DNA of 35,705 nt from Paraspadella gotoi. Its lineage: Eukaryota; Animalia; Chaetognatha. The notes beneath the pieces were generated by a model. The model was not told where the DNA came from and searched no databases. It saw only the letters and a program-made list of their open reading frames with translations. Below, in pieces: positions 3,212-33,162 of this stretch. Every line of letters begins with the position of its first letter. Within the stretch, counting starts at the first letter, position 1. A program made the position numbers and the translations under genes. The stretch covers positions 112,725-148,429 of the forward strand of contig JBJCIZ010001666.1 of assembly GCA_051294375.1 (NCBI GenBank), in the 5' to 3' direction.

Positions 3212-4097
3212 CGCCACCTCTTCTGACCGGCGGACGCCATTTCCCGGGTGGCGCCAATCACGGGACTTCCGGCGACCACGCCCCATTCCGGTGGCGGCCA
3301 ATCCCCAAGCTTACTGGGTTTTTGTTTTAAAAAGCCAAATTCCCCCAACTCCAGTGATGCCCAAAACTTCCGCGACGCCCCCACATTCCGGCACACCCAC
3401 TTTCCGGTGCCGCAAAGTTTCATAGCTAGAAGAAAAATGAGACGCTAAAGCGGCTCCTGCAAAAAATCCAATAAAAACGAAGAAAAGTAAACCAACCCAA
3501 ACTCAAACTAATTGCATGACCAATATATGCCAAGTAAGCTTTTGTCCTGTCTTATATGTCCTTTGTTCTGTTAGCTTTGTACTGTATTACAATTTGTATC
3601 TCTATTTTTTTGCGAGCCGCTTTAGCGTCCTCATTTTCTTCTAGCTATGAAACTTTGGCGGCACCGGAAGTGGGTGTCGCCGGAAGTGGGCGTCGCCGGA
3701 AGTTTGGCATCACTGGAAGTGGGGGATTGGCTTTACCAGAAGCTGGGGATTGGCNNNNNNNNNNNNNNNNNNNNNNNNNNNNNNNNNNNNNNNNNNNNNN
3801 NNNNNNNNNNNNNNNNNNNNNNNNNNNNNNNNNNNNNNNNNNNNNNNNNNNNNNNNNNNNNNNNNNNNNNNNAAGAGGTGGCGGCGCGGAAAGTCGGAAA
3901 TTGGCGCCACCGGAAATGGGCATCGCCGGAAGTCGGGGATTGGCGCCACCGGGAGTGGGCGTCGCCGGAAGTTTGGGATTGGCATCACCGGGAGTGGGCG
4001 TTGCCGGAAATTGGCGTTACCGGAAGTGGGGGGTTGGCGTCACCGGAAGTGGGCGTTGCTGGAAATTGGCGTCGCCGGAAGTGGGGGGGTTGGCGTT
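3212..4097. repeat. GC-rich fold-back minisatellite of 18-30 nt units containing CCGGAAGTGG
   Basis: Units read ACTTCCGG on the left arm (3212-3420) and CCGGAAGT on the right arm (3655-4097). Inner inverted repeat TAGCTAGAAGAAAAATGAGACGCTAAAGCGGCTC (~3423-3456) / GAGCCGCTTTAGCGTCCTCATTTTCTTCTAGCTA (~3614-3647). Two N-gaps in or next to it. Confidence 0.75.
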
Positions 4098-4539
4098 TAT
4101 TTACAAATGGCTAGTTTGCAGCTAATTGTAGCTTAAGCTGTCGTTTATTTACAAACAGTTAGTTTAATAGTTAGAGTCTTCACATAGTCTTAAATATTTA
4201 TTCGTCCCTGAGAGAGGACAAATAGGGACAGACAGCCGGACCAAACAATCNNNNNNNNNNNNNNNNNNNNNNNNNNNNNNNNNNNNNNNNNNNNNNNNNN
4301 NNNNNNNNNNNNNNNNNNNNNNNNNNNNNNNNNNNNNNNNNNNNNNNNNNNNNNNNNNNNNNNNNNNNNNNNNNNNNNNNNNNNNNNNNNNNNNNNNNNN
4401 NNNNNNNNNNNNNNNNNNNNNNNNNNNNNNNNNNNNNNNNNNNNNNNNNNNNNNNNNNNNNNNTTTTTTTTTCTCAAGTAACTATTCTTCCCTCTCTATA
4501 TATTTTTGTTCTATTTTAGTTATTGTTTNNNNNNNNNNC

Positions 4540-5056: not shown

Positions 5057-6400
5057 TTATTCGGCTTTTCTTTTTTGTACAAAATTTCGCCAAATCAAAA
5101 CTTTTTCTCCTATTTGATAATCGACTATGTTATTTAGAATTAAGCTGGGCGTCGTTTCTATATTACGAGCCCGGCATATTTTATGTAATAGGGCCTCAAT
5201 TCTAAAATTTTTCTCTGCCAAATAACTCTCACTCGAGCCCTCTGGCGGTTCCGCCTCGGCGGTTTGAGAGCAAGGTAAGACTGGATCACGCCCATAGAAA
5301 AGTTGGTGGGGTGAAACCAGCAAATCGTTTTCGATTTTTATGGGTGCTATGTTTACCGCCCTTACCACCGATCACCATGTTTTAGTCCAAGGCTGTCCCG
5401 ATGGTTGTAAACGCCGAAACAGGGTAATTAAGGTAGCGTTCACTTTTTCAGACAAGTTCGAATTTTTTTGTGATGGTCTGAAGAAGTTACAAGTAAAGTG
5501 AAACTCTTTTGAAGCGTTTCCATTATGGTATTTGATATTCTCTACCTAGATCTGATTCTATGGTTCTAGGCGTTAGAGAATAACTATTTAATATATCCAT
5601 AATGGCTGTTGTTACTGTCTCTGCCATTTTGTTACGCAATGCTGCCGCAAAAACATAGCGGGAACAAATGTCAACCACTATGAGAGGGAATCTTTTACCT
5701 TCGATCTCTTCCAATTATAATAAGTCAGTATGTAATGTACTCCCAATGGCTGAATCAAAAATTGGGAATTTTCTCCCTTTTGTTAATTTTGCTTTTTGCG
5801 CTAAGGTGCAATTCTGACATTTGTGAAAAACTCTTTCACAAGTCGATTTTAAGTTGACAATGAAATATGTTTTGGCAATTGCACACTTCATCCTCGATGG
5901 GTTAGTGTGAGCTAGGGAGATATGTATGGAGGAAACTATGCGATCAGCGGCTGATGGTGGCACCACGATCGCGAGATATTCAGAGTTATCATCATTGAGA
6001 CCTGAGTAGTATAAGGTCCCGTTAATGACTTTGAGATTTTCTCTAATACTCAAAAGATGGTTAAGGTATTTAGATCTGACTCTTTCCACGTGATTTTCTG
6101 GTTCAATCCCTGTCGTGAGGACCTCAATTACTGCCACTGTGTCACTACAGTTGCTTTGCTCTCTTGGGAGGTCCTCATCTGAGGGAGAAACTTTTTTACA
6201 CTTAGTGATTTCGCCATTGGCGGCCGCCGCTACAGCGCTTCGAATTATGGCGTCGCCTCTGTCAAAATTGACTGGAATCACCTAGCAGACAAGGTTCTCG
6301 GCTTGTTGCTCTTCCATTCTCAGGCACATTACTCAAGCGCACAAGGCCATCCTAACTCCTTCAATACTCAGTGATTTTGGTATTTCGATGTAATTCCTTC
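5057..6400 (-). pseudogene. Degenerate Ty3/Gypsy-like (or Ginger-like) integrase
   Basis: H2C2 zinc domain (IHISLAH...CQNC), DDE core (LHTDL*, IVVDICSRY, IESDLGREY, RPSQKNSNLSEKVNATL in a shifted frame) and SPHQLFYGR. In-frame stop at 5715-5717 and frameshifts near 5523 and 5370. Confidence 0.85.
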
Positions 6401-9647: not shown

Positions 9648-9830
9648 CCTCTCCGCTTGTGGATAACCCCACACTTAGTGTGCCCAGTGGGTCTGGCAGA
9701 TTTTTCCATCAGTTGCCTTGCTTTCAGACTTTCAGACTTCGGTTCCGGCGATAGGCTTGCTACCTATGGTTTAACCGACCAGTAACTCTTTTTGCAAGGA
9801 CTGTTCCGATCAGGGCTAGAACTCGTGATG
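9648..9830 (-). mobile_element. tRNA-like SINE family D, degenerate copy with twister-like core
   Basis: Homologous to 27153-27330 and 27673-27730. B-box-like GAGTTCTAGCCC. P5 CCTTGC/GCAAGG encloses TAA-ACC...CCGGA-ACCGAAGT. Confidence 0.6.
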
Positions 9831-11098: not shown

Positions 11099-11710
11099 TT
11101 ACATAAAATAAATTTTATAACAATTAATGATTTCATTTACAAGTAACTCATAACCTGCAAAATTGAGATGTAAACCATCAGCTCCAACAAATCTTTTGCC
11201 TCTATAAAATGTCATTGTATTAACTCTAAAAATAGAATCCTCGTGACAGGTACAAGAAAAATTATTTGAATTCAATGCATCAATAACTTTATTTACATCA
11301 TCTATATAATCTTGATGTAAAGACTCTGGAAATCTTGTATATTTATCTTGATTAACTTTTCTTGGGCACAACGGAACATAAATAATTTTCAGCTTTGGAA
11401 ACCTTTTAATCAAGTCACATGAATATTTCCTAATTTTTGTGGATATACGCTCACCAATAACTGTAGGCATGTCGAAGGTTGAATTCACCTCAAAACTTAT
11501 ATCATTTTGAGCTAATGATAATATCAGTAATGTATGTTCGCTTTTTAAATTTTTCCAAATATAACCACTCTCGCCCAATAAATCCGTTATGCAAGCACCA
11601 GAATAAGAATGTAATTCAATTTTTTTCAATTTACAAGACTCGGCAATATATTTAAAATGCATCTTATGTAAGTTTTTAAGCATACTATCAGACAAAACTA
11701 AGGCAGACAT
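11099..11710 (-). CDS. SGNH/GDSL-family hydrolase (esterase), 203 aa
   Basis: Uninterrupted ORF with block I LVLSDSM (catalytic Ser; SDS instead of GDS), block II YSGA, block III LAQNDI and block V DGLHLN (DxxH). Confidence 0.85.
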   Translation of the reverse strand: MSALVLSDSMLKNLHKMHFKYIAESCKLKKIELHSYSGACITDLLGESGYIWKNLKSEHTLLILSLAQNDISFEVNSTFDMPTVIGERISTKIRKYSCDLIKRFPKLKIIYVPLCPRKVNQDKYTRFPESLHQDYIDDVNKVIDALNSNNFSCTCHEDSIFRVNTMTFYRGKRFVGADGLHLNFAGYELLVNEIINCYKIYFM

Positions 11711-11906
11711 GATTTATGGCATTGGTTAATCTAAATGAAAAATAAAAATAAACATTACAGCCAATTCAAACAATAAAATAGAAAAAAAATCATTTTATTC
11801 ATCAAATATAACTTAATAGGGAAGTTGAAAACAAATTCCAATGACAAATATAATTATTTCTTTTTTGTTTTCTCTTTCAAAAAAAAAAAGATTAATTAAT
11901 AAATTG

Positions 11907-12135
11907 TGGCAACACATTCACTTTCGCCACCCGCCTGTGTCCTGCGCAGCCCCGGTGGCGTAAGAGTGAGAATTCTCTCTTCCCAACAAACGGTCTTGGG
12001 TTCGCGCCCCATTGGTGTCAACTAGTAAGCAGAACGAGTCGTCTAACCCACCTGTAGCGGCGGACTGCAGTCTGAGCCGAAGTTCTGAAATTAGTAAATA
12101 ACAGTCGTAGTTTGTCCTGTGGCACTGACTTGAAT
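11907..12135 (+). mobile_element. tRNA-like SINE family B with degenerate twister core (12021-12095)
   Basis: A-box-like GTGGCGTAAGAGTG and B-box-like GGGTTCGCGCCCC. Homologous to 26647-26835. Confidence 0.7.
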
Positions 12136-12836
12136 TGTCGGATCTGCCCACGATCATTAGCGGTAATTAATTATTAATTATTTAATTAATACAAACTAAA
12201 ATAATAATTTAAATAATAAATTAATTAATTTGTTTTTAGGTCTTTCGTCGCTGACCAGGACAAAAGCAACGACGGCGACGACGACAATAATACCGATTAA
12301 ATAATTAATTTATTTATAAATATATTGATTGATTGAATAATTAATTAATAAATAACTAAATAAATTTATTGATTGAATAATCTATTGATTGATTAATTGA
12401 CCAATTAAATAATTATTATTTAATTGACTAATTGATTAATTAACTGATTAATTATTTGATTACATTTGATTTACATTTAATATAAAAGAAAAAGAAGCAT
12501 AATCAATTAGTGAAACCGTTTTTTTGTTTTTTCCATTTAAACTCATTTCCACTCAGACGATTCCATCCAAACTTGATTTCCAGCTTAATCACACACTTTC
12601 CACATACAAAATTTCAAGTCAATCGCCCCATCCACTTATGAGTAATTGGAGTTCAAATAGTGAAATAAATTTTTTTGTTCTTTCTATTTAAACTCATTTC
12701 CACTCTCCTGATTCCATCGAAACTTTATATCCAAGTCAATCGCACGCTTACCTACCCACACACAAAATTTCATTCCGATCCATCCATCCAATCACGAGTA
12801 ATTGTTGTTTTTTGCTAAGGTGGGACGGACGGACAT
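12136..12836 (+). mobile_element. HINE-like element, 5' subTIR to microsatellite, with AT-rich expansion
   Basis: TGTCGGATCTGCCCACGATCATT start, core CATTTAAACTCATTTCCACTC repeats, GGGACGGACGGACA. Confidence 0.6.
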
Positions 12837-12846
12837 TATTATTATG

Positions 12847-13692: not shown

Positions 13693-16600
13693 TTACAGTA
13701 ATATAATATTACCTTTCTTAATCTCATTCAAAAGCTGAATCCTGACTACTCTTTGATTTATTTCAGTAATGAAAACATTTTTCTTTTTTTCAGTGTTTAT
13801 AACATCAACTACTAATCCATTTTCCCAATATTCTTCGCTATCTGTTTTTACTTTTTTTTGAAATTCACAGTTAATCAATTTTTTGGGTTCTTTAAGGTAT
13901 TTTTCATACATAGTTAAGGTTTTCTTTACTTTTTGTTTTCTTAAAGCCATTTCGATCTTTTTCGAAGTACTCGATAATACGAGTCCAGCTGCTTCAGAAA
14001 CATCACTGGTACTAAATGATTGTTCCTCTTCCACATCGAGAGTCTTGAGTAATGGGTTTTCTTGATAAATTTTACTCAAATGATTTAATTTTTCTTCTAA
14101 TGAGTATGTGCGATTCCGTTTAGTTTTACAAAAGACATCTTTGCTACTACAACTGGCATTGCAAACTTTATTCAAAAATTCAATATGTAAATTCAAAGCT
14201 GCAATCTTTTGCTTTGGATCAATAATTACATGTAACTTATCATTTACTTCCTTTTGTACCCACGGAGTTCCATATTTTTGAGTGAATTGGCGAATTATTT
14301 CTAATTTTCTCCTTCCTTGTACTTCCTCACGTTCTAATTGAGAGTCAATCTTTTTTTTTCTTTTTTCTAATAGTTCACTTTGATAATTTTCAAAAATAAT
14401 TTTTTCCTCCTCTCTTCTTTTCTTGAAAGACTTGAGTGCAGTGTCAAGAATTTTCTGCTGTTCTGGTAATGATTTACTATCAAGATAATCCATTGGACGA
14501 TTAGTTATCATCATGACACTTGTCTCTACAGTAGTAGGTTTGGCGGTTGGTTTCTGGTTAATGATATGTCGAGTCAGTCCAAATATTGATTCGCCCCATT
14601 GATTTGTTGTAGGTACGCTGGATGTTTGATCAATAAAATTTGGCTCATCTTGAAGAATATCCATATCTCCACCACTTAAAAAATCTTGTGCTTGAGTAAC
14701 TAAAGTGTACAATAGTGCCCCACTAATCATTTTTGCAATATTTAAAACTTCATTTCGATTAGGATCATCAGTTGGCATAATTTCTAGCATTTTTGTTACT
14801 CTCTCTTTTTCCAAGAATGCATCCGAAAAAGGTGATTGGCCAGCCATCATTTTGGATGCATCTATTTTAATTTCATTGAGGTATTCGTGAAGACATTGCA
14901 AATGAGGAATTAATTCTAAAATATGGACGTTAGTTTTACTGTATCCATCGCCAAAAGCTTTACCATAAAATGATCTCCATAAAGGTGAAATAATCAGAAC
15001 ATCATACAGTGCTATTGCTCTTAGTTGGTTCAGAGTTAGTTGGTCATGGAGGTCGAAGTTAATTGATTGAAATATCCTTACGCTATTCTCATTTTCAAAA
15101 AAATGAACAAGAAGATCTCGATTAATGATTATGCGTGTCGCAGCAGCAAATTCTATACCAGCACGACTGTGCTCAAAATGAACCATATTTTCCAATTTAT
15201 GCTTTTGACAAAATGCTTTAAAAACAGAAGATCTTCTCCATAATTCTTCTCCATGATGTGGAAAACAAACAGATGATATATTCTTTATAATACGCTGAGC
15301 TGAAGGCGTTTCTGATTGATACATATGAGGGTTGTGTTGTTGGCATTCAGCTTCAAATTGAGTCAAGCTTTTTAACATGGAAGTTCCAAAATTACTAATC
15401 AAGTGTAATTTACAATAAAAAGTATTTATTCGACTTAGTTCAGAAAGTTGTTCTTTGTTTAGGTTTTCATTTGCTTTCAGAGTGGGCAATAAGTCCTCTT
15501 TAAATTTCTTTAGCTCATCAGCAAAAGCTCCATTCACCGGAGCCTGATCTGTCATTGTATTGCTAATCTTGCAAATGATTTCTGCAATATCATTTAACTG
15601 TTTACCATCCTCTTTCAATCCATTATCAATAATATCAGTAAAAGTTTCATTAATATATCTTAGCAACGACTTTGCATCTTCATGGGTAATAGAACGGAGT
15701 CCTAAATTAAAAGTATTTGTTCTTGAAATTAATAATTTTAATATAATGTACAATTATATAATGTTTCAAGTTTAATTCAAATTTAGGTATAAATTAAAAT
15801 AAATGTCTAAAATGTACTATACAACTATCAATAGCTGACCAAATTTATATTTTAATGGGAAAATCATTAAACAGAATTAAGCTTTGGAAATCAAATTTAT
15901 GACCCAACCCATTGACATAGATTTGCTGTGATACAAGTATTAGTATTAATATCTATAATATATAAAATTTTATATTGATTCTTACCAATTACATAATGTG
16001 AACCATCAGAAAAATGCAACTGAGTTCCAAGAAAGGTTACATTGTTATGAGTCGCTGAATCCATTGCTAAGGTAATATCTTTTTCAGCTTTAATTTTTTC
16101 ATTTACTTGTGTCATTAATAATGAATGGCATTCGGTCAAAACTCGCGAAATAAACGTTGTTGAAGGTATTCTGCTCATTTCAAAACCAGTTATACGTTTT
16201 AAAACGATATTCATTGCCTGGGGAATCTTTTTTGCTGGAACCCCTTGCTCAAATAAATTCATAACACAAGTACGAATCTCATTTTGATACTTACCATCAG
16301 AGAAAATATGATATTCTTTATCTTGAAGAGAATCAATTATTTGCTCTAAGGCAGTAATTTCTTTATTTCTAATTTTTAATTGTTTTTCAAAATGGTTTTC
16401 TTTTTGCTCTAGCTCTGAGTTTTTCTCCACTATTTTATTTCTTAACAATTTACATAGATATCTTTGCTTTAGAAATTTATTCTGATATTTGGACTTGGCT
16501 TCTTTTTCTTCTTTCAACTTTCTCAAAAGAATGCTTATCGTTTTATCTTTTTGCTTTTGTATACCTTGTTCAATATTCATCCTTTCTTTACCTTTGTTCT

Positions 16601-17522
16601 TTATTTCAGCAATTTTCAAATCTTTCCTGACTTTCATTCTGTAGTGAGCTTGCTTCAAAAACTTATAGGAATTTGAAATTTTTTTTCTTTCTTTCATATT
16701 CTCTTTTAATTGTGTCATCAGCTTAGAATTTTCAGTTAATGGTTTTTCTGAGATACATTGAGAAGAGCTTATAACAGAAGGATCAGATTCCGAACAGATC
16801 TCCATTGGCATAATTATTGGATCTATTAAAAAAAATTTTATTCCATTGTAGCTTTTAATATAGTCATTTTTAGTTGTGCCGCGACTAAGCGCGGAGCAAC
16901 TCTATAACTCACTTTTGGGTTGCTCTATCCTAGTAACGTTAAAAATATTCATTACTTTATCAATTAATTTTATTTGTGGTAAGAAGGTAAAGTACTATTT
17001 AACCTCTAATATTCACATATATCATAATTGTGTCTCCTAATAATTTTTTAAATTTATCAAATGACTCAAAATTCACTTTTTTTATGATACAAAAAGTCAA
17101 AAAAATTGAAACAATTGCTAGCACCTTTTCTTTTTAAAAAAATTGGACAGGGAATAAAGATGATTTACAACGTGCCTGTCAAACATACACAAAAATATGC
17201 GTGATTAGAAAGTGACTGTGGTGCAACACAGTTGAATGTCGGTTCTTATTTTGAATTATTGCAAAGTTTAACTTTCTATACATGTAGATTAGAAAAAAAA
17301 ATTACCATTTATTTCACTCTCCAAAAAAAATGGTGACTGCAGATACACTTCGCGTCTCGTTGTTTTCAATATTTTAACTCTATGCCTCACATATCGTACT
17401 CTTCGAAGAAGTCTGTTATCACATAAATTTGATATATCGAATTTATTTTTTAATTTGTTTAGCATCGAAATTGCATTAAGACCATTAACCAACTCTAATA
17501 TATTTTTTATATTATTTTCCAT
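13693..17522 (-). CDS. hAT-like DDE transposase, 3 exons (17522-17306, 16822-15986, 15701-13693), 1020 aa
   Basis: Two GT-AG phase-1 introns join three ORFs in frame (..SEIN/DPIIMPM.. and ..SHYVI/GLRSI..). Lys/Glu-rich coiled coil, then ITLAMDSAT (D1), NTMTDQAPVN (D2), FYCKLH (CxxH) and VPTTNQWGESIFG (E, hAT-dimerisation-like). No stops or frameshifts. Exact superfamily uncertain. Confidence 0.8.
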
Positions 17523-17921: not shown

Positions 17922-18556
17922 TAACTAGTTTGAGCAAACAATAATTAATCGGTAATCAGCTAATCAGTTGATAAATCACGATAATTCTTTCAATTTGTGA
18001 TCCTAATTGATCTGAACAGATCGTACCATACAAAATCAGTGGCTGCGCCAATACATGTAAATCGCATGCAAGGGATTAGAGTAAACTTTTACTATGGTAG
18101 AAATAATTACAAATAAAGTACAAATAATTTTTTAACTATTATTTTTTTTTCAACTTGCATCATATTTTCCACTTGCATCATTTTTTTAACTTGCCTAATT
18201 TTTTTCAACTTGCATCTTTTTTTTTATCTAGCTCCATTCTTTTAATTCGCAATCATTTTTTTAACTTTGCTTTTTACATTTAAACTCATTTCCACTCGCA
18301 CGATTCAATCGAAACTTTATATCCAGCTTAATCACACACTTTGTTACAAACACACAAAATTTCATTCCAATCCATATATCAAATTGGAGTTTTTTGCTAA
18401 CGGGGGACGGACATTGTTTTTTTCTTCTTAATTTATCATAATTCGAAGTTCTGATATGATAATAATGATTTACCGACAAAATTTTGGGGTGGGACCGATG
18501 GACCGACAAAGTGAATTATAGATTAGGAATCTGCTGATAAGCAGATCCGACTAAAA
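17922..18556 (+). mobile_element. Near full-length HINE-like element with internal 18-nt minisatellite
   Basis: AGTTTGAGCAAACAAT start, (TTTTTTCAACTTGCATCA)n at ~18145-18220, core, GGACGGACA, terminal ATCTGCTGATAAGCAGATCCGACTAAAAA. Confidence 0.7.
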
Positions 18557-18789
18557 ATGATACCGCCGGCAGCAGAAAAGCTTAATATTCTAGTATTGAA
18601 TTGCGATAATTTTATTTTTATTTCCCATAATATTAGAAGTTTGAAATTTTTTTTTTAATCAAAGCCCCCTTTTTTTGTGCTACTGAATCAGCAGACACTC
18701 GTGCAGAGAGGTGGAAAATTAAAAGAAGGTTTCGATCAACGTTATGGTGTGGCAGCAAGTCTTAAAGTTGCCTCACTGCTGTCCGTCGG

Positions 18790-19569: not shown

Positions 19570-20512
19570 AATTTTACAAGCGCCGGTAAAAAAACGCTGC
19601 CATTTGCAAACCCATGAAGATTCTTTCAATATTAAATATGAAATTAAGGGTAAAAAATAAAAATATTTTTGTATGCAAATTTTATATGATTCGACTTTGA
19701 TATGCCTTAGCAATGATAGCTGGAAGATAGATTTGAAAATCGTCTCGGATTTTTAAACTCATTGTTTTTAGATTGGATTTTTCTCTCTTACTTTCAGTAA
19801 GTTTTTTGAAGAAATTTTACATAAAATAATAATAATATTATTATCTTCTGAAAGCCCTTGCAAATCTTAAGAGAATGATGTACTTACGAATACTGTAGTA
19901 TAAAATTTAACCGGCCCAGCTTTAATTTAATTAGGATAGTCAAAAACGAGACATCTTTCCAAAAATCAATAGCTGGAGAGTAAATTAAAATTTTTTATCA
20001 AATTGTGATAGGCTATCTTAAATATTTTTTTCTTAGGCTCTTTCATGATACTTATATAAATAATATTTTATATTATAATAATTTAAACGAGTCATATATT
20101 TTTTAAAAAAAAGATTAAAAATTTTAAATAATTTACTTTTAACTTTCTTAATTGAAACGAGGCTGGGCAGCTTAATTTTTATGTTAGAGCTTTTGTAAGT
20201 ATATCATTCTCTTCACAATTTTAAGGGCTTTCAGAGGATATTAATATTGATAATAACTTAATTAATATTTTGTCTTAAAAAAGTGTTAAAAGTTTAAAAA
20301 AAAAAATAATTTAAAAACAGTGAGTTGGAAAATAAAACCCCATTTTAAAAGCCAACTTTCTCCACTCATTGTCAAGGCATATCTTAACTGATCAATATAA
20401 AATTTAAACACATAAATGGTTTTAGTATTTTCTACTCAACTAACTTTTAAAATCAATGAAATAACTACTGGTTTACAAATGGCAGCGTTTTTCTACCGGC
20501 TCTTGTAAAATT
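19570..20512. mobile_element. ~940-bp fold-back/MITE element with long imperfect inverted arms
   Basis: AATTTTACAAGCGCCGGTAAAAAAACGCTGCCATTTGCAAACC / GGTTTACAAATGGCAGCGTTTTTCTACCGGCTCTTGTAAAATT. Inner arms also pair (~19845-19890 vs ~20190-20240). Confidence 0.75.
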
Positions 20513-20545
20513 TATGGTGGACTAAAATCCACCAACCGTTCATCA

Positions 20546-20748
20546 GCGGCCATTGGTGCCGGAGTCAAGTCATTCGCCTCCCAACCCAAAGGTCCGGGGT
20601 TCTAGCCCGGTAGTCGTCTGGCAGTTAAGAGGGATGGGGCGCTTAACCCGCCTGTAACATGGTGTTACAGCCTGATCCGAAGCTCAGGGACTGCTTATAT
20701 TGAACGGTTCTGTCATTAACACATAACAATAATTACTGTCTCTTCAAA
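20546..20748 (+). mobile_element. tRNA-like SINE family A containing a twister core
   Basis: TGGTGCCGGAGTCAAG A-box-like, GGGTTCTAGCCC B-box-like. Second copy at 30418-30561 plus 31170-31228. Confidence 0.75.
20621..20694 (+). ncRNA. Twister ribozyme, type P5 permutation
   Basis: P5 GCAGTT/GACTGC; GATGG; linker GGCGCT; T^AA (20644/20645); CCC; GCC; P3 TGTAACA/TGTTACA; G; P4 CCTGA/TCAGG; L4 TCCGAAGC. Confidence 0.75.
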
Positions 20749-20749
20749 T

Positions 20750-20960
20750 TGTTAGTAATTGGAGTTTTTTCCAAAGGGGAAATGGACACACGGACGGACA
20801 GACAGAAAGACGAACAGTTTTTTTTTGCATAATTTATCATAATTTTATGGTCTAATATGATGTAATTGATTTACTGACAAGATTTAGCAGTGGGACCGAA
20901 GGACTGACAAAGTGGATTATAGATTCGGAATCTGCTGATGAGCAGATCCGAACTAAAAAA
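20750..20960 (+). mobile_element. HINE-like 3' fragment
   Basis: GGACGGACAGACAG microsatellite and TCGGAATCTGCTGATGAGCAGATCCGA terminus. Confidence 0.7.
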
Positions 20961-21734: not shown

Positions 21735-22463
21735 CAGTCCTGTGCAAAAAAAAAGAGGCCACCCAAAAAAATTACGCAAATAAATAATGTTAGATTCTTT
21801 CATTATAAAAGATAATATAGGTTAATAATTTCATGGGAAAAAAATTATTGGTATAAATTTTATAAAAATTTGGCCATCCATTTATAAGCAATAAGTTATT
21901 TAACATAACTACTAAACCAAATTATGCAAGCAGACCAAATTATATAAGTTGACCACAATATTCAAGTAGACCGAATTAAACAATTTAACCAAATTATTCA
22001 AGTAGACCAAATTATTCAAGTAGACCAACCAAATTATGCCATATAACCAAATTATACCAATTGAGCAAACTATACTGGTTGACCAAACTATAACAGTTGA
22101 CTAAATTATACAAGTTGACCAAATTATGATAATTGACCAAATATATAAGTTGAGCAAATTATGCCAGTTGACCAAATTATGCCAGTTGACCATATTTTAC
22201 AAATTGACCAAATTATGTTAGTTGATCAAAATATTCTAGTTGACCAAATTTTGTAATTTGACTAAATTATGCAAGTTGGTATTGACGGAGCTACTGGTAT
22301 TATGATTTGTAATGATCTGTTAAGATCACAAATTAAAAATCAGAAAATATTATCATGATTTATCATCGGATTAGCTTATTACTAGTTAATTATCATAAGC
22401 AGATCCGACATTGTTTGCGCAATTTGAAACTTAAGGTTGGCCTATTTTTTTTGCACAGGAGTG
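21735..22463. mobile_element. Tc1/mariner-type non-autonomous element with internal 18-nt minisatellite and HINE fragment
   Basis: TIRs CAGTCCTGTGCAAAAAAAAAGAGGCCA / TGGCCTATTTTTTTTGCACAGGAGTG flanked by TA on both sides. (GTTGACCAAATTATACAA)n at ~21915-22280. Confidence 0.8.
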
Positions 22464-23433: not shown

Positions 23434-23629
23434 AGAATATATGATCAATCTAGATGGAATTCCACGTCGATCGGTAACAAATTTATCAATAAGGAAAAAA
23501 GCGATATTCGACCTAGTAAATAGTTGTATCAAAATTTTTAATACAACTATTTACTAGGTCGAATATCGCTTTTTTCCTCGTGGCTCAATATTGATAAATT
23601 GTGGAATTCCATCTAGATTGATCATATTC
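23434..23629. repeat. ~190-bp palindromic (MITE-like) element
   Basis: ATGATCAATCTAGATGGAATTCCAC / GTGGAATTCCATCTAGATTGATCAT outer arms and AAAAAAGCGATATTCGACCTAGTAAATAGTTGTAT perfect inner arms. Confidence 0.8.
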
Positions 23630-23710
23630 TGGTGGTCCTATCACCACAGATAGTTTAAAGCTGTTTCTTTTGCAGCGCCTCAGTGGACTAATGCACCATC
23701 CCTGAGGTTG

Positions 23711-23791
23711 TCATGTAGAAAGTGGGATGGACCGGGTAACCAGCCTGTAGGCTTGGGCCTGCTGCCAGATCTAAAGCTCTGGACTACGTGA
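23711..23791 (+). ncRNA. Twister ribozyme, type P5 permutation (best-preserved copy, family C)
   Basis: P5 TCATGTAG/CTACGTGA; P2 TGG/CCA; GATGG; linker ACCGGG; T^AA (23737/23738); GCC; P3 GTAGGC/GCCTGC; P4 CCAGA/TCTGG; L4 TCTAAAGC. T1 (TA/TG) and T2 (GC/GC) pseudoknots are both pairable. Confidence 0.8.
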
Positions 23792-25818: not shown

Positions 25819-26085
25819 AACAAGTTTGAGCAAACAATGCCGGATCTGCACACGATCATTAATGGTATGCAGCAGATGAGATAATTAATTAACCAACACA
25901 CAAAATCGTCCTATACACTCCTATAGACAGTAATTGGCGATGAAAGCTAAGTTGGGACGGACAGACGGACGGACATCAGTTGTTTTTTTTCCATAATTTA
26001 TTATAATTCGATGTTCTGACAATATTTAACTGACTTACCGACAAAATTTTGGGATGGGACCGACGAACCGACAAAGTGAATTATA
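25819..26085 (+). mobile_element. Internally deleted HINE-like element
   Basis: AACAAGTTTGAGCAAACAATGCCGGATCTGC start, GGACGGACAGACGGACGGAC, GGACCGACGAACCGACAAAGTGAATTATA. Confidence 0.7.
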
Positions 26086-26646
26086 AATTTGACGTTATGG
26101 ACATAGATAAAAGTAATGAATCCTCCAATTTTAGATTTACTTATCAAATAATTTCACGGTTTCCCGGTGCTGCTTTGACGGAGGACTTGGATCGGACTCG
26201 TCAGTTTTTCTGTGAATTATTACAAATAAATTAATGAGGCTAAATAAATAATTATGAATAAGTTTCTGCTGCATTCTCATTTATTTTGAACATAAGTCAA
26301 AAAGCCCTAGTCCTTTTTAATCTTCTTATGCTTTAATCAACAAAGTGTAGTAATAAAATTCATAAATTGTTTAATTTAGTCCCAAAAGAGCTTTATCTCC
26401 CTGTATAAACGACTTACCATTTATAAATTAATTAAATATGACAAGATGGATATCTTAGTGATAATAATTAAAATGTTTCTAACCGTTTAGGTCGAGCTCC
26501 CAAATGTTCTCTTAAGTCCCTAAAAATAGGAATGATATTAAACATTATATTCGGAGATAAGTAATAGATTCTCTTGGAATAAAAGTTTGTCTTTGGATTT
26601 GTAAAATGCCATATTGAATATCAACATTAAGATAAATTAAACTTTG

Positions 26647-26835
26647 TGGCAACACATTCACTATCGCCAATCGTCTGAGTCTATCGTAAGAGCGAGGATT
26701 TTCTCTTCCCACCAAGCGGGCTGGGGTGCGCTAGTAAGCGGGACGGGACGTCTAAACCACCTGTCGTGGCGGACTACAGTTAGATCCGAAGTTCTGAAAT
26801 AACAGGCGGTAATTTGTCTAGTCGTGTGGCATTAA
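26647..26835 (+). mobile_element. SINE family B copy with twister core (26731-26800)
   Basis: Homologous to 11907-12135. GACGG-GACGTC-TAA-ACC-ACC...TTAGA-TCCGAAGT-TCTGA. Confidence 0.7.
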
Positions 26836-27152
26836 AACTTAATTAACAACCTCAAAGCAACAAAGATTCAAACAAGTAAAAGTGTAAAGTTATATTTTTC
26901 ATTTTTCATCAGTACATCTCATAGCGAGTTACCGTCGATTGTCGGGAAGAGGAGGCAGATCGATGTTGGGAGGAGGCCGAATTGGCGAGGTTTTGCGACA
27001 GGCGTCGCGATTGCTTTGCTGTGATTTATTTTCTTCTTCTCTGTCAACGATAAAATTTTTAATTGTTCTCTAACTATACCAGTTGAGCAATTTTATAATT
27101 GCCTTTGCAGTCTGTGACCGAGAGGAGTGACCGAGAGTGACCGAGAGTATTC

Positions 27153-27330
27153 CTGCCTCTCAGTGAGTGTAGTTAGCCCCCACACTTAATGTGCCTAGTG
27201 GGTCTAGGAGATTATTTCCATCGGTTGCCTTACTTTCCGGAACTGCGGATGCGGCGGTAGGCTTGCTATCGGTGATTTAACCGGACCGTCAAACTGTTCC
27301 GATCAGGGCTAGAACCCGGGACCATTGAGT
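27153..27330 (-). mobile_element. SINE family D copy with twister core (~27227-27294)
   Basis: Minus strand GGGTTCTAGCCC B-box, then GACGG-TCCGGT-TAA-ATC-ACC-GATAG..CTACC-G-CCGCA-TCCGCAGT-TCCGG. Confidence 0.65.
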
Positions 27331-27997
27331 TCAAAGATGAAGCGTTACTATTTTTAAGTAATGAGTAATAATATTTGTCAAAGATGTTTCGGCCCGACTG
27401 ACTCTCTTTTCCTACGTTTAATCGTATGGTTAAATTTAGACTCTTACTTTTTATGGTCAGGTTTTTTGTGGTCAATGAGTTACAACCGCGTTTTTCGAGA
27501 GAGAAAATGAAACCACATTTAGTTTTCGCTTGAACTCTCATTAAATTGTATCTTCACAATATTATTTAAATAAGTAGATAGGGATTTCAATATTTAAAAA
27601 AAGGGGATTTTATTCTAGAGAAAATAGACAATAACAAAAAGGTTGAAGTGACTGAGAGGAGAGAGGGTCGCCATGCCTCTCGGTGAGTGTGGATAGCCCC
27701 CACACTTAGTGTGCCCAGTGGGTCTGGGAGACTAATGCTGAGGGTCTTCGGTATTTTTTCCCCATTCCGTTCCGTTCCCATTCCGTTGAAATCTCCTCTG
27801 GTCGTAGGTTTTATTAAACTTCTTACTGCCTCATCCTTTTGAAAAAGATTATCTTTGGTTTGATTTTCCGCAGACTCTCCTGGTTTTAGGTGCCAGTCTC
27901 TTAAGAGGCGTGCTTTTGAATCCAACCACTACAACCACATTTAAGTAAGTAGACAGAGTTTTCAATATGAAACCAATGTGGATTTTAAGCTCTTATA

Positions 27998-28189
27998 TAA
28001 ATTTTCACTATAGGAATTCTGGGCTAAGTAAGAAAAAACTTTTTTTTACAAATATTTCGGCATATATTTTTATGCCATCATCATGTTATTGCTTTACCAC
28101 TGATGATGGCATAGAAATACCTGCCGAAATATTTGGGAAAAAAAAGTGTTTTTTGTTACTAAGCACAGAATTCCTATAGTGAAAATTTA
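27998..28189. mobile_element. Penelope-like inverted repeat with minimal hammerhead (28097-28136, +)
   Basis: Arms TTCACTATAGGAATTCTG / CAGAATTCCTATAGTGAA. CCA-CTGATGA-TGGCA..TGCC-GAAA-TATT-TGG. Confidence 0.7.
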
Positions 28190-29287
28190 CATTAGATCTT
28201 AATATACTCCCTGTGCTTGTGATGACGTTTAAAGAACAAAGTAGATTTTATTTTCGAGAAAATAGTAATTAACAAACGGAGTGAATAAAATCAGAAAGTC
28301 AATTTATAGAGAGAGTATGGATCTACGACACGGATAAAGTTTACCGACAGACAAAAGCCCGTTCAGAAATTGGCCGGTGCCATCGGTGGCTTGAAAAATG
28401 AGAGAGTTGTATTCTTTTTCTGGCGAATTTTATTTTGGTCACCGATCCGATTCCGGTTCCGGTTTGTAATTGATTTAAATTCAGTACTCATTCAGAAAAT
28501 TAATTATTATATTTTTTATACTTTGTATACAATTTATTATATTTGTATATAAATTTTTGTACTGACGTTGATAGGGCATAACTTGTAAAATTTATTGCCA
28601 AATCAATACAATGCATTTCATAACATTGCGAGTGTAGAAGTACATTTATTATCAATAACACAATATTATTAGACAGAGACATGTTGTTAATCAGAAAGAT
28701 GATGAGAGAACTAAAGGAAGAGAGTAGTTTTTAACTCCAAGCTGACGGTGCCGCACAAACAGCGGCATATGTAGATCGTCTTGAAGGTTCTGGCCGAAAA
28801 GTTGGGCGTCGGGAGTGCCAGCCTGGAAACCCGAGGTGCCGGCCTCAACGTCGGCAGTACCAGTCTCGACATTGAAGGTGTCGGCCTGTACGAAGATGGT
28901 GCAGGTCTGTACGTTGATGGTGCCGTCCTGGACAACGTGGTAGAGTCCTAGAAGGTGGTGGTTTCGGCCTGCAAGGCGTCACTGGAGGAAGAGCCATCTC
29001 AAGATCGCGCCTGACTGCACGTATCGCTGCGATCGCGACTTCAATAAAACAGTGGGCGTCATTGACATTGGTCAAAGATTTTTGTAGAAAGAATTTTCAG
29101 AAGCGTTTTCGCGGTTCATGTTATTATCAATAACACAATGTTATTAGATAGAGAGACATGTTGTTAATCAGCGAGATCATGATTAAACTAAAGGTAGAGA
29201 CCGCGGCATTGACCAAGTAAGAAAGTGAGAGAAAGAGTGATCAGTAGCAAGCTTCCCGAGCGACCACCAAACAGTGGCCAACTGGGG

Positions 29288-30036
29288 TCAAAACCGTGGC
29301 AACGAAAAAGTCGTCGCCACACTAGGAATAATAAAAGCTTGTGTGTAATAATAAACGAGTAATTAAAAGCAACAAATTAAAATATTAAAGAAATGGTATT
29401 TGCAAACCTAGCTTTCTTTGCAGGAAGCGGAGGAAACTCGGACCCTTTAAAATATTTTATAACAATTACTTGCAAAAGAGAAAAGTCAATAAAAATAACG
29501 AATTCAAATTACTCTGTTGGACATAAACTCTCAGAATGGAGAGCAAGAGACGGAAAACCCCGCTCATCAACTCGACTTAAATAGAATTAAACATTGAATG
29601 ATAAAATTATTAATATATTATAGGACTCACTCTTGAGTTTAGAAGTCCACTTGCGACTTTCAGCATCTAGATATCAAGGAAATAATTATATAAATTAATA
29701 AAATTAAATGGAATTGTTTATTTTGCTGACAGACAACGAGTTTTTTTTTCATTTTCACAGAAAAACGTACATGTTTTGGCTACTATGCTAGCCTTCATCC
29801 GCGAAAAATATTAAGTTCATTATTTTGCGCTGATGAAGACTAGCGTATTAGCCGAAACATGTACGTTTTTCTTCTGAAATTAAAAACAAATTTGTTGTCT
29901 GTCAGCAAAACAAACAATTCCATTTAATTAGAATTTCAAACGCAACAAAACGATAAGCTCGAAATAATAACTCAAGTATTGAATATCATATGCATTTCTA
30001 TTTTCAATTACCGCCTTCAGGTGCTCCTGTGGCCAT
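29288..30036 (-). CDS. Candidate small multi-exon ORF of unknown function
   Basis: GC-richer islands bounded by AG/GT (30036-30012, 29666-29631, 29444-29408, 29321-29288) join in frame: MATGAPEGDAESRKWTSKLKRSEFPPLPAKKASVATTFSLPRF*. No homology recognised. Confidence 0.3.
29702..29929. mobile_element. Penelope-like inverted repeat with minimal hammerhead (29827-29866, +)
   Basis: Arms AATTAAATGGAATTGTTT.TTTTGCTGACAGACAAC / GTTGTCTGTCAGCAAAA.AAACAATTCCATTTAATT. GCG-CTGATGA-AGACTA..TAGCC-GAAA-CAT-GTA-CGT. Confidence 0.75.
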
Positions 30037-30417
30037 CTGGAAAACTGAGGAAAAAAATATTATAAACATAATATTATTCTATGATCAAATTAGAATATAT
30101 GTATTTCGAGTTTAATGCGATTGTCGACAAGAATGCCACGGAACGGGTTAAGGATTAAAAGCAGGCTTGGGGTTTTTCAAGGGTCATCACTGAAGATTAT
30201 ATGCTTATAGGCGGGGTTAATATCGAAGGAGACTCAGCCTCACCTAACGTTATCGGGCGATCGCTGCAGAATTTCACAAAATTGTGATTGGTCGAGATTA
30301 TTGAAACCAACTACAAAATGTAAAAATTCGGAGAAAAAATGTAATCAGTTTAGTCATTTTTTATAACTTTAACATAAAAATATCATAAAACATATTTTAC
30401 AAAAGATTCCTAGTTTT

Positions 30418-31228
30418 GGTGCCGGAGGCAAGTCATTCGCCTCCCAACCCAAAGGTCCGGGGTTTTAGCCCGGTGGTCGCCTGGCAGTTAAAGAGGACGG
30501 GGCGCTTAACCCGCCTGTAACACGGTGTTACAGCCTGATCCGAAGCTCAGGGGCTGCATATTAGGGTGGAGTGATGAAAAGATTGAGTGATGGAACAATG
30601 TTATTTGGCTGCCTTTGTATATGTAATAAAAAATAATTAAGCCCTTTTTGCATAACAGTATCATTAATTGAATTTTCTTTTAGTAATATCCTTATAAAAT
30701 CATAAAATTTCAAAATCATATTTTTTTAATTTTAAGAACTGTTTTGGATTCGCCGGAAAAAAACTGAAAAACTTTTGTAAAATATGTTTATGATATTTTT
30801 AGGTTAAAGCTGCAAAAAATGACTAAAACGTTTCATCATATAATAGTTTCTACTACAGAGCGTCAAAAAGGGGAAATTTTAACCTTTTTTTCAATTTTTG
30901 ATACTGAAGGCATTGAAATTATTAATAACATGTTTTATATTTTTTGATCTAATTTTTATGAAGAATCAGAATCTTTAATAAAAATTTTAAAAAAATTCTT
31001 TTGAAAATTTATTATTTTATAAGGATATGACTATAAATATATTGTAATTAATGATACTGTTCCCCAAACAATACAAGCAAAATATTTTTTGTACTCCTTA
31101 ATCATACGATCTCACATCTAAAAATCCTTGTTTGTTCACTCAAATAAAATTTATTATTGCTCCACTCTACTGCTTATATTGAACGGTTCTGTTCACTAAC
31201 TCATAACAATTATCACTGTCTCTTCAAT
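30418..31228 (+). mobile_element. SINE family A copy (twister core 30484-30557) split by a hAT MITE
   Basis: 30418-30561 and 31170-31228 rejoin to match 20555-20748. Confidence 0.8.
30562..31169. mobile_element. hAT-type MITE
   Basis: Termini TAGGGTGGAG / CTCCACTCTA with 8-bp TSD CTGCATAT / CTGCTTAT (1 mismatch). The empty site is visible in the SINE copy at 20691. Confidence 0.8.
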
Positions 31229-31229
31229 A

Positions 31230-32430
31230 GTTTGAAATTTTACGAATATATAAGGATATTACTATAAAGAAAATTCAATTTATGATATTGTTATGCTAAT
31301 TTTTTTTCAAAAAGATATTAATGATTTTTCATTATTTAAAGGCAGAAAAAAAATATTATTCCATTGCTCAATATTTTCATAGCTCCACCCTAAATCCTAA
31401 TGGCCATAACCATTATGAATGGAGCACTCGAGAACAAAAAATTTATTTGAGTCAATTAACAATAATAATTTTATGCGAGATAGTATGATTATTATATATA
31501 AAAAGTATTTTGTTTATTTTGTTTCGGGAACAGAAAAGCAAAATACAATATATTTATAGTAATATCCTTATAAAGTAAAAAAATTTTATAAAATATTTTT
31601 AAAAAATTTTTATGAAAGATTCAGATTTCTTATAAAAAGTTAGACTAAAAATATAAAACATATCAAAAATTCCCATGTCTTCAGTGTCACAATTTTAAAA
31701 AAAAGTTAAAATTCTTTATTTTTTCACTCTCTGTAGTAGAAATTATTATGAAATTGGTACAACCAATATAAAAATTATCCATTCATTTAATAAATAAGCT
31801 ATCTTGCCCCTGACTTTGGATAGGCTTTGGTGGTTTAAGGCCTCCTCTTATATGATAAGACGTTTTTATTATTTTTCGCATCTTTAACATTAAAATATAT
31901 AACATATTTTATAAAAGTTTTTTTTATTTTTTTTTATGAATCTGAATCTGTTAAATTTAAATATTTTAAATTTTTAAAAATTTTACGAATTTATAAGGAT
32001 ATTAATATAAACAAAATACAATTTGCTATATAGTTATATTAAATTTCTTTAATTGCGTATACAGATGCAGCAAAAAATATTGTTAACTCGCTTAATTTTT
32101 TCATTACTCCGCCCTAATAACTTAGCTTTGGTTTTTGTTTTAAAATAACTGGTGGAGCATTGGGGAACATAAATTTTATTTGAGTGAACAAACAATGATA
32201 TTTAGACTTGAGATAGTATGATTTTAATTTAAAGAGTACAAAAAAAAACAGTATCATTAATTTCAATATATTTATAGTCATATCCTTATAAAATAATAAA
32301 TTTTTAAAATAATTGTTATTAAAGATTCTGATTCTTCTTAAAAAGTTAGATCAAAAATCTAAAATATGTTATTAAAAATTTCAATGTCTTCAGCGTCTAA
32401 GATGGAAAAAAAGGTCAAAATTTTCCACAA
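31230..32430. mobile_element. Cluster of fragments of the same hAT MITE family
   Basis: Termini CTCCACCCTAA (~31383-31393), CTCCGCCCTAA (~32107-32117) and GGTGGAGCA (32151). Internal blocks match 30562-31169 in reverse orientation. Confidence 0.65.
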
Positions 32431-32982: not shown

Positions 32983-33162
32983 ATAAGGCAGTTTATTGTG
33001 GGATTTACAAGTCCAGTTTTTAAATTTTTTCTAATATTTCGATTTACATTGATAAATTATTTTTCAAGGCAGTCCAATTGAAAAATGATTTATCAATGTA
33101 AATCGAAATATTGGAAAAAATTTAAAAACTGGACTTGTAAATCCCACAATAAACTGTCTTAT
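32983..33162. repeat. ~180-bp near-perfect palindrome (MITE-like)
   Basis: ATAAGGCAGTTTATTGTGGGATTTACAAGTCCAGTTTTTAAATT... mirrored by ...AATTTAAAAACTGGACTTGTAAATCCCACAATAAACTGTCTTAT. Confidence 0.85.

Follow-up and report, generated by a model that had tools for sequence, protein, structure and literature searches.

The closest described systems are twister ribozymes in the P5 strand order, the twisters of Perere-3/RTE retroelements, the SINE-like hammerhead repeats of Schistosoma (presumably Sm-alpha), the dimer-dependent minimal hammerheads and the SINE superfamilies that share a central domain. Papers are cited below by accession from excerpts, and statements about them extend to those excerpts. 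The twister active site comprises the U-A of the cut site, a conserved G, the three-pair pseudoknot T1, the pseudoknot T2 and a P3 helix anchored beside T2 (PMC5408937). P2 has 4 bp in twister, and a changed number of pairs is suggested to disrupt the active site; an essentially invariant G-C pair closes loop L4; P1 is dispensable, as a twister lacking it cuts at a near wild-type rate; and the sole twister dimer described in this source is a crystal artefact (PMC5408937). In the Rfam Twister-P5 consensus, P1 is an 8-bp hairpin with a tetraloop and P4 has 4 bp. Twister T-variants lie at the 5′ end of Perere-3/RTE elements (PMC8501958; PMC7761336), truncated twisters are found at RTE 5′ ends (PMC7761336), and the role of most genomic twisters is described as open (PMC8501958).

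In Penelope elements and in axolotl/amphibian retrozymes, hammerheads whose short stem III is palindromic act as dimers when they cut (PMC6765202, PMC7229834). A hammerhead separates the tandem Schistosoma repeats into monomers that carry their promoter at the 3′ end (PMC6765202). The conserved central domains of SINEs are 45-150 bp long; PMC4758252, in its excerpts, assigns them no catalytic function and treats their function as open.

The window, that is the whole 35,705-nucleotide stretch of DNA analysed here, is AT-rich (mostly 22-43% GC), contains many interspersed and inverted repeats and is probably eukaryotic. A twister-type core is present in seven copies of four high-copy repeat families (A, B, C and D), and there is one further, decayed candidate. 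The seven positions had been proposed in a first-pass annotation of the window, and a sequence check confirmed them. The elements are dispersed, in high copy and about 190-235 bp long, and comparison with the systems above identifies them as a predicted new variant both of the twister ribozyme and of the ribozyme-bearing SINE-like repeat. With the Schistosoma repeats (PMC6765202) they share a Pol III-type, SINE-like build and an internal motif of self-cleaving type; in contrast to those tandem hammerhead units, the motif is of twister type and stands whole within a dispersed head-core-tail unit. The Perere-3/RTE twisters occupy the 5′ end of autonomous LINEs, have a 4-bp P2 and define the 5′ junction, whereas the twister-type core here is internal, permuted and placed behind a tRNA-like head; the non-LTR type of retroelement is common to both, and P3 of families A to C resembles that of S. 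mansoni in Table 1 of PMC8501958. A middle domain joined to different heads and tails is also the hallmark of the CORE, V, Deu, Nin, Ceph, MESC and Snail SINEs (PMC4758252), a likeness drawn from their descriptions.

All seven cores align in the order P5, A-A-G-N-G-K, G-A, three T1 bases, six free bases, U-A-A, three P2 bases, R-C, C, P3, G, P4 with an eight-base loop, and P5. In the family C copy, the letters at the predicted cut and at the catalytic-position G are those that the annotation had stated:

23711..23791, plus strand: family C twister-type core, from alignment, pair counts, descriptor and majority letters
23711-23718 with 23784-23791, plus strand: P5
23722-23725, plus strand: 5′ strand of P2, with 23723 bulged in the family form
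23740-23742, plus strand: 3′ strand of P2
G23726 and A23727, plus strand: catalytic-position G and the A after it
23728-23730 with 23771-23773, plus strand: T1
23731-23736, plus strand: hexamer, followed by the predicted cut U23737^A23738
23743-23744 with 23776-23777, plus strand: T2
23746-23763, plus strand: P3
23765-23769 with 23778-23782, plus strand: P4, with L4 at 23770-23777

The cores of the four families have only about 63% column identity, and every active-site feature listed in PMC5408937 is present in them. The U^A of the cut site and the second A after it are the same in 7/7 copies; with the A/G of L4 and the C of T2, they make up a set that is invariant or nearly so in all seven. 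The bulged base, the loops and the hexamer vary among copies. The catalytic-position G is found in 5/7 copies, at least one per family, and the A next to it in 7/7. It has become A in B1 and T in D1. T2 pairs in 14/14 cells, as G-C in three copies and A-U in four, which bears out the covariation between families that had been claimed. For T1, which pairs in 19/21 cells, the claim stands in part: one pair is C-G in some copies and U-A in others, but the TA/TG of copy C is private, and nearly all other family-C depth has C at 23772, giving a Watson-Crick CA/UG. P3 and P4 differ in sequence yet keep pairing, as had been claimed, with compensatory changes in both. P5 has 6-8 bp in A1, A2, B1, C and D1, and one of its strands is deleted in B2 and D2.

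In the seven-copy alignment, pairing is seen in 133 of 154 cells (86.4%), a count that excludes P5, at which the families are out of register; shuffles average 77.7%, and none of 500 is as high. The covariation score is 0.411 versus 0.254 in shuffles, and slid registers of the structure are at most 42% paired. Compensatory or two-sided changes occur in T1, T2, P2, P3, P4 and the hexamer; the pairs with a two-sided change number 8, which is not above shuffles (143/500). Profiles built with one family left out recover that family at 28-32 bits for A, 32-33 for B, 27.8 for C and, most weakly, 10-12 for D, the best scores in 30 shuffled windows per test being 5.1-8.6 bits. A structure-only descriptor, fitted to the 3-nt P2 spacing of these cores, matches A1 and C with no violation, A2 and B2 with one, D2 with three, B1 with five and D1 with more than five; in 12 shuffled windows it finds no site with one violation or fewer, one with two and two with three. 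The shuffle and slid-register controls favour the structure because it was derived from these same sequences. The pair statistics are support and not proof, seven related rows being few, and single-copy folding z-scores are weak (+0.08 to -2.76), single-sequence folding being uninformative. Taken together, the sequence evidence confirms that the repeats carry a conserved, high-copy feature with a putative twister-type core in P5 order, which is not a product of chance.

The cores agree with Twister-P5 (RF02684) in strand order, U^AA, the G-A-N-G-G strand, T1 and T2, the L4 pattern and an optional P3 anchored by a C-G pair. They depart from it at three sites. Three nucleotides separate the AA from the T2 strand in 7/7 copies, and P2 consists of 3 bp and a bulge (15/21 cells paired), in contrast with the 4 bp of the consensus; the bulged base is A, C or U by family, and a G-C pair lies beyond it in 5/7. 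The loop L4 is closed by A-U in 6/7 copies on a 5-bp P4, whereas the consensus has G-C on 4 bp. The position of P1 is taken by a self-complementary 6-nt segment that differs among families and folds no hairpin, unlike the 8-bp consensus hairpin. T2 is also A-U in two families here. What the annotation had read as P2 mismatches in A, B and D is this conserved one-base bulge; the clean 3-bp P2 of copy C is itself private, 23742 being C elsewhere in the family.

The Rfam twister models, which the annotation had put forward, give no match in the window at E up to 1 and none in stretches of C, A2, A1 and B2, including bare cores, at E up to 10. The queries were genomic copies rather than family consensus sequences, and the gathering score of RF02684 is 37.6 bits. 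As a positive control, the same search detects twisters in 9/16 phage loci, with four Twister-P5 matches above the gathering score. The lack of a match is attributed to the departures of P2, the L4 closing pair and P1 from the consensus. These three departures and the absent match are why the core is termed a twister-type variant and kept out of RF02684. Hence the earlier assignment to type-P5 twisters survives for the fold, which is in P5 order by covariation and majority letters, but not for the Rfam match, the P2 length, the closing pair of P4 or P1. The phage matches L025 98-163 (plus strand, 52.2 bits) and L027 98-163 (plus strand, 40.3 bits), both above the gathering score and related to each other, align with a 3-bp P2. 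A short P2 is thus not unique to the predicted SINE cores, as 2/4 control Twister-P5 matches have one.

Contig searches point to many more copies than the window holds. In run X1, 8417 contigs match a 271-base A2 stretch, and summed depth reaches 1.4-4.4 million versus 320-860 for locus-specific contigs; the contig number and this ratio of thousands are not copy counts. Depth is much lower for families B and D than for the other two, in part because their window copies are diverged. The majority letters of B2, C and D2 come from 40 of 108 difference rows, and the hexamer ends of C and D lie outside these rows. In family A, majority letters repair the B box (30465) and the P2 strand (30492-30494); in family C, they repair 23761 (P3), 23772 (loop and T1) and 23788 (P5), and at 23742 they make the P2 strand identical to that of A and B. 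They restore P3 and P4 in B2 (26765 and 26781) and P3 in D2 (27269), and in one X1 contig a D-type 5′ strand retains the catalytic G, forms a U-A pair in P2 and shows the same pattern of bulging. Majority letters mend most broken pairs, so the defects of individual copies are private decay, and a single structure accommodates the family forms.

The elements around the cores are as follows:

20513..20745, plus strand: A1, an apparently full-length family A element
20515-20533, plus strand: A1 leader hairpin, with an arm (20534-20542) complementary to 20701-20709
20546-20618, plus strand: A1 tRNA-like cloverleaf, the core (20621-20694) starting two bases further on
G20633 and U20644^A20645, plus strand: A1 catalytic-position G and predicted cut; tail to about 20745
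20508-20512 and 20746-20750, plus strand: weak 5-bp flanking duplication of A1
30416..30561, plus strand: A2, a 5′-truncated family A copy with head and core (30484-30557)
U30507^A30508, plus strand: A2 predicted cut; private P2 changes at 30492-30494
31170..31227, plus strand: A2 tail, displaced by an insertion
30562-31169: 608-base inverted-repeat insertion in A2, with an 8-bp duplication containing one mismatch
30411-30416 and 31228-31233: 6-bp flanking duplication of the whole A2
11905..12124, plus strand: B1, with leader, tRNA-like head (11948-12020) and core (12021-12095)
12033, plus strand: B1 catalytic-position G changed to A; hexamer broken
11905-11911 and 12118-12124, plus strand: the same 7-mer at both ends of B1
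26645..26831, plus strand: B2, with a leader arm complementary to the tail, a head with deletions and core (26731-26800)
G26742 and U26753^A26754, plus strand: B2 catalytic-position G and predicted cut, with a perfect palindromic hexamer; 3′ strand of P5 deleted
26637-26644 and 26832-26840, plus strand: candidate 8/9-bp flanking duplication of B2, which has the 7-mer at both ends
23630..23710, plus strand: family C 5′ leader hairpin (23632-23647) and shortened tRNA-like head
about 23678-23688, plus strand: A-box-like remnant of the family C head; B box absent from the window copy
9667..9828, minus strand: D1, with B-box remnant, core (9716-9799) and hairpin tail
9784, minus strand: D1 catalytic-position G changed to T
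27130..27331, minus strand: D2, with B-box remnant, core (27227-27294) and hairpin tail ending in 10-mer repeats
G27290 and U27279, minus strand: D2 catalytic-position G and predicted cut; 5′ strand of P5 deleted
27647..27734, minus strand: orphan family D tail, a 5′-truncated copy without core

The order in A1 is leader hairpin, 9-base arm, cloverleaf, core, complement of the arm and short tail; family B shares this plan. The A1 head folds as a cloverleaf with a near-complete acceptor stem and a 5-bp T arm, that of B1 is weaker, and the D heads consist of a B-box remnant only. ARAGORN makes no tRNA call in the window at default settings and no Rfam tRNA match to the heads was found; on relaxed settings, 2 of 20 mostly noisy calls (20546-20618 and 11948-12020) end 0-2 bases before a core. 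The Pol III A/B-box-like heads described in the annotation are therefore upheld by the A1 and B1 cloverleaves and qualified by their weak detectability and the remnants in D. Its remark that the family C copy keeps only an A-box-like head is correct, and a B-box-like segment just before 23700 in other C-like contigs (run X5, 5 contigs) means that the window copy probably lost part of its head.

The A leader is the commonest loose end in three runs (138, 45 and 26 contigs) and the tail is likewise common, so that both belong to the element. The leader of 30-45 bases before the head is longer than usual for internal Pol III promoters. This length suggests that the source loci have a promoter upstream, or else that the templates were tandem or circular; the conserved leader and the 7-mers at the ends of family B likewise hint at a tandem or circular source. 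None of the seven copies is tandem, and the cut site is internal in all of them. Candidate flanking duplications, in AT-rich DNA, accompany 3/7 copies (A2, A1 and B2); A2 is 5′-truncated inside its head, one D tail lacks a core and the D tails terminate in short repeats. Outside the core, alignable sequence is confined to members of the same family, except for a B-box similarity between A and D. In sequence, the elements look like tRNA-SINEs and not tandem retrozymes, and the architecture fits LINE-mobilised SINEs as described in the excerpts of PMC4758252.

The six bases between T1 and the cut site, unnoticed in the annotation, are the best clue to how the domain may work. They are self-complementary in each family, as GGCGCU in A, GACGUC in B2 and a CCGG core in C and D2, with pairing in 18/21 cells and a middle pair that is C-G, G-C or A-U by family. 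In one copy per family (A1, B2, C and D2), the middle and inner pairs are Watson-Crick in 8/8 cases, and the same four copies reach at most 6/8 at 44 other offsets; the count of eight amounts to fewer than eight independent events because the inner C-G is common to all four families and perhaps inherited. Hexamer self-duplexes have energies of -6 to -8 kcal/mol in A1, A2, B2, C and D2; B1 and D1, which lost the catalytic G, also have damaged hexamers. A model blind to the hexamer pairs found the decayed candidate, which has a different perfect palindrome with an inverted inner pair (E 0.25):

31802..31860, minus strand: candidate eighth, decayed core (family E), 8.4 bits, E 0.25, insignificant alone
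31838-31843, minus strand: its palindromic hexamer; P3 missing, T2 and a P5-like stem present
within 31802..31860, minus strand: damaged P2 5′ strand and T1 of the candidate

The same blind model ranked locus L009 first among 15 outside loci, again with a perfect palindrome. L009 49-115 (minus strand) is part of an AT-rich metagenome contig with a microsatellite; T1 and T2 match, and it is possibly a decayed relative in another organism. With poor P3 and P4, no visible head and preselection by pattern, L009 is a hint of a relationship.

In a twister-compatible secondary structure computed without pseudoknots, the swapped dimer of A1, A2 and C is more stable than two monomers by 10-12 kcal/mol, and the gain is only 4 kcal/mol for B1, the hexamer of which is broken. 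A 1-bp P1 hairpin costs about 4 kcal/mol in A. Unconstrained cofolding, to which pseudoknots are inaccessible, prefers other dimers of lower energy. The arrangement parallels the dimer-dependent minimal hammerheads (PMC6765202, PMC7229834), in which a short palindrome likewise replaces the stem beside the cut site and implies a swapped dimer; in contrast, the ribozyme class differs, and tandem arrays and circular RNAs are demonstrated there and not here. Two type-P1 twisters stand head to tail in the phage contigs L026 79-178 (minus strand) and L029 60-159 (plus strand), and similarly in L018; in L026 and L029, six bases lie between the G-A-N-G-G of the first twister and the U^AA of the second, which is the spacing of the SINE cores. 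Such pairs would offer a natural model for the origin of a P5-order core with a self-complementary hexamer.

We give about an even chance to the reading in which these elements form a tRNA-SINE superfamily whose central domain folds like a twister and cuts at U^A mainly as a strand-swapped dimer. Beyond the fold, we infer every step, including transcription, cleavage, the need for a dimer, ligation and a LINE partner. RNA polymerase III would transcribe the element from its A and B boxes, and a single transcript would as a rule remain uncut and be returned to the genome intact. The monomer would cut slowly; it would have no P1 because the inner pairs, two in number, would leave loops of 0 and 2 nt. 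Where two units met, either within one tandem or read-through transcript or because the RNA was concentrated, their hexamers would form a 6-bp duplex. As in double hammerheads, one unit would then supply the 5′ strand of an active site and its partner the U^AA strand. Every active site would be swapped in this way because the P1 partners, the base after T1 and the base before the cut-site U, would lie on different molecules. Cutting would resolve multimers or limit abundant RNA. That it would cut the head from the tail, as the annotation proposed, is too simple: P5, P2 and, in A and B2, the long-range arm would hold the products together. An RtcB-type ligase could rejoin them, and a LINE-type enzyme would copy the uncut or rejoined RNA from the tail.

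Also at odds with simple head-from-tail cleavage, copies starting at the cut site show no excess, and ends do not pile up among the loose-end rows listed. Summed contig depth, a poor measure, changes little across the cut in X1 and X5 and falls 3′ of it in X9. With no tandem copy in the window, no copy that begins at the cut and no increase in depth 3′ of it, whole RNA appears to be what integrates, which fits a ribozyme that is slow as a monomer, silent, or subject to repair of its nick. Joints near the cut site (9/15 of those listed end at 30499-30513) were rejected as cleavage footprints because private A2 changes at 30480-30498 could produce them.

If dimer gating is correct, the principle of the double hammerhead would hold for a second ribozyme class too, and the middle part that these probable retroposons have in common would gain a catalytic job. 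The differing P2 length and L4 closing pair, together with the absence of tandem units among the seven copies, speak against this reading. The near wild-type rate of a twister without P1 (PMC5408937) also argues against a need for dimers, as the monomer may cut. Such a P1-less ribozyme, active as a monomer like the engineered mini-twister, would nick each transcript, and the palindrome would be secondary; the outcome would be release of the tRNA-like 5′ piece, or a paired, nicked RNA that is religated or jumped by reverse transcriptase. The 3-bp P2 of the phage matches L025 and L027 shows that a short P2 is natural, and P5 with the 9-bp arm would clamp the products. Efficient cutting should nevertheless give many copies from A+1, whereas depth is similar or lower 3′ of the cut, and a different self-complementary hexamer in each family is left unexplained. 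We regard monomer cutting as rather unlikely.

A twister descendant that no longer cuts, with the double pseudoknot kept as a structural or protein-binding module for stability, nuclease block, partner recognition or dimerisation, is unlikely as well. It would account for the absent Rfam match even of bare cores, for the two differing consensus features and for the integration of whole, uncut elements. A ribozyme behind an RNA-derived head has, moreover, been argued to cause 5′ truncation (Kojima 2018, PMC5786205, excerpt). Against a silent fold, each of the four families retains the catalytic G and A+1 despite the low column identity, and the departures are compensatory, with the A-U closing pair in 6/7 copies and the G-C beyond the bulge in 5/7. 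The SINE-like superfamily appears to have a twister-type fold as its central domain, at a position argued to be harmful in the same source.

A more speculative and distinctly doubtful extension of the dimer is that an obligate-dimer twister serves as an RNA recombination device, since the swapped dimer pairs each head with the tail of the other molecule. Once both strands were cut and the 6-bp duplex had come apart, head X would stay joined to tail Y with ligatable ends; ligation would yield a recombinant RNA, or a circle from a tandem transcript, and the family-specific palindromes would act as self-recognition codes. If true, this would supply a catalytic function for a SINE central domain and a means of exchanging modules at the RNA level.

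Very unlikely is a non-autonomous rolling-circle DNA transposon of Helentron/HINE type on the other strand, in which the tRNA-twister cassette would be cargo, the arms would be subterminal inverted repeats and the leader hairpin would be the 3′ stem-loop. On its minus strand, A1 does have an arm followed directly by the hairpin and a T-rich end, a layout that we take to resemble HINE anatomy; 5-9-bp duplications at the flanks, truncation at the 5′ end, where the tRNA part lies, repeat-ended D tails and termini that are not common to the families, as the target of a transposase would be, speak against it. That the core is a second decayed tRNA unit of a dimeric SINE, with P5 as acceptor stem, P4 as T arm and a chance likeness to twister, is highly improbable, because the cloverleaves forced on A2 (30464-30559) and A1 (20620-20696) require very low ARAGORN thresholds and come from sets of 20 and 131 mostly noisy calls, the loop is 8 nt long with an A-U closing pair and not the 7 nt of a T loop, the descriptor control in shuffled windows argues against chance, and the two-sided changes in both pseudoknots would have no explanation in a tRNA, so that T1/T2 covariation largely refutes it.

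Full-text literature searches, judged mostly by the entries they return, point to neither a twister within tRNA-SINEs nor a natural dimer-dependent twister; Dfam, Repbase, SINEBase, the original twister lists or the supplements of PMC8501958 could hold the families. Pattern scans with the 3-nt P2 give no match in viral contigs (five with a looser spacer, none with stems), one match without stems in prokaryote genomes and nine in metagenomes, eight of which have neither stems nor palindrome, the ninth being the doubtful relative L009; exact patterns would miss relatives with other P2 letters. A blastn search with A1 finds no match in phages, and the second-organism run X10 has 0 contigs on the core stretches, which may be a filter effect. 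Because Rfam does not detect this variant, comparable elements may go unrecognised in other genomes.

Other features of the window include MITE-like inverted-repeat elements at 30562-31169, 23439-23628, 27982-28205, 32983-33162 and 29702-29929, one of which splits A2 with its 8-bp duplication and another of which abuts the 5′ end of copy C. Rfam microRNA matches in the window were rejected as spurious products of inverted-repeat elements. At the ARAGORN threshold of 90, the only tRNA-like call is 28843-28920 (plus strand). Two long adjacent reading frames of about 686 and 334 aa at 13693-16901 (minus strand) match no significant Pfam family; the longer has one 1143-aa homologue with 26% identity over its length, and the pair possibly encodes an unclassified transposase. 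A 204-aa frame at 11099-11713 (minus strand) has a weak GDSL/SGNH esterase match (E 6e-4, below cut-off), and 5057-6281 (minus strand) is a broken LTR-retroelement integrase region (Integrase_H2C2, E 3e-7). A GACA/GACG microsatellite element, which presumably resembles Helentron-associated interspersed elements, recurs at 923-1186, 12521-12845, 18266-18557, 20796-20958 and 25955-26122. Tandem arrays comprise an 18-bp array at 21900-22303 and a GC-rich 16/23-bp array at 3639-4098.
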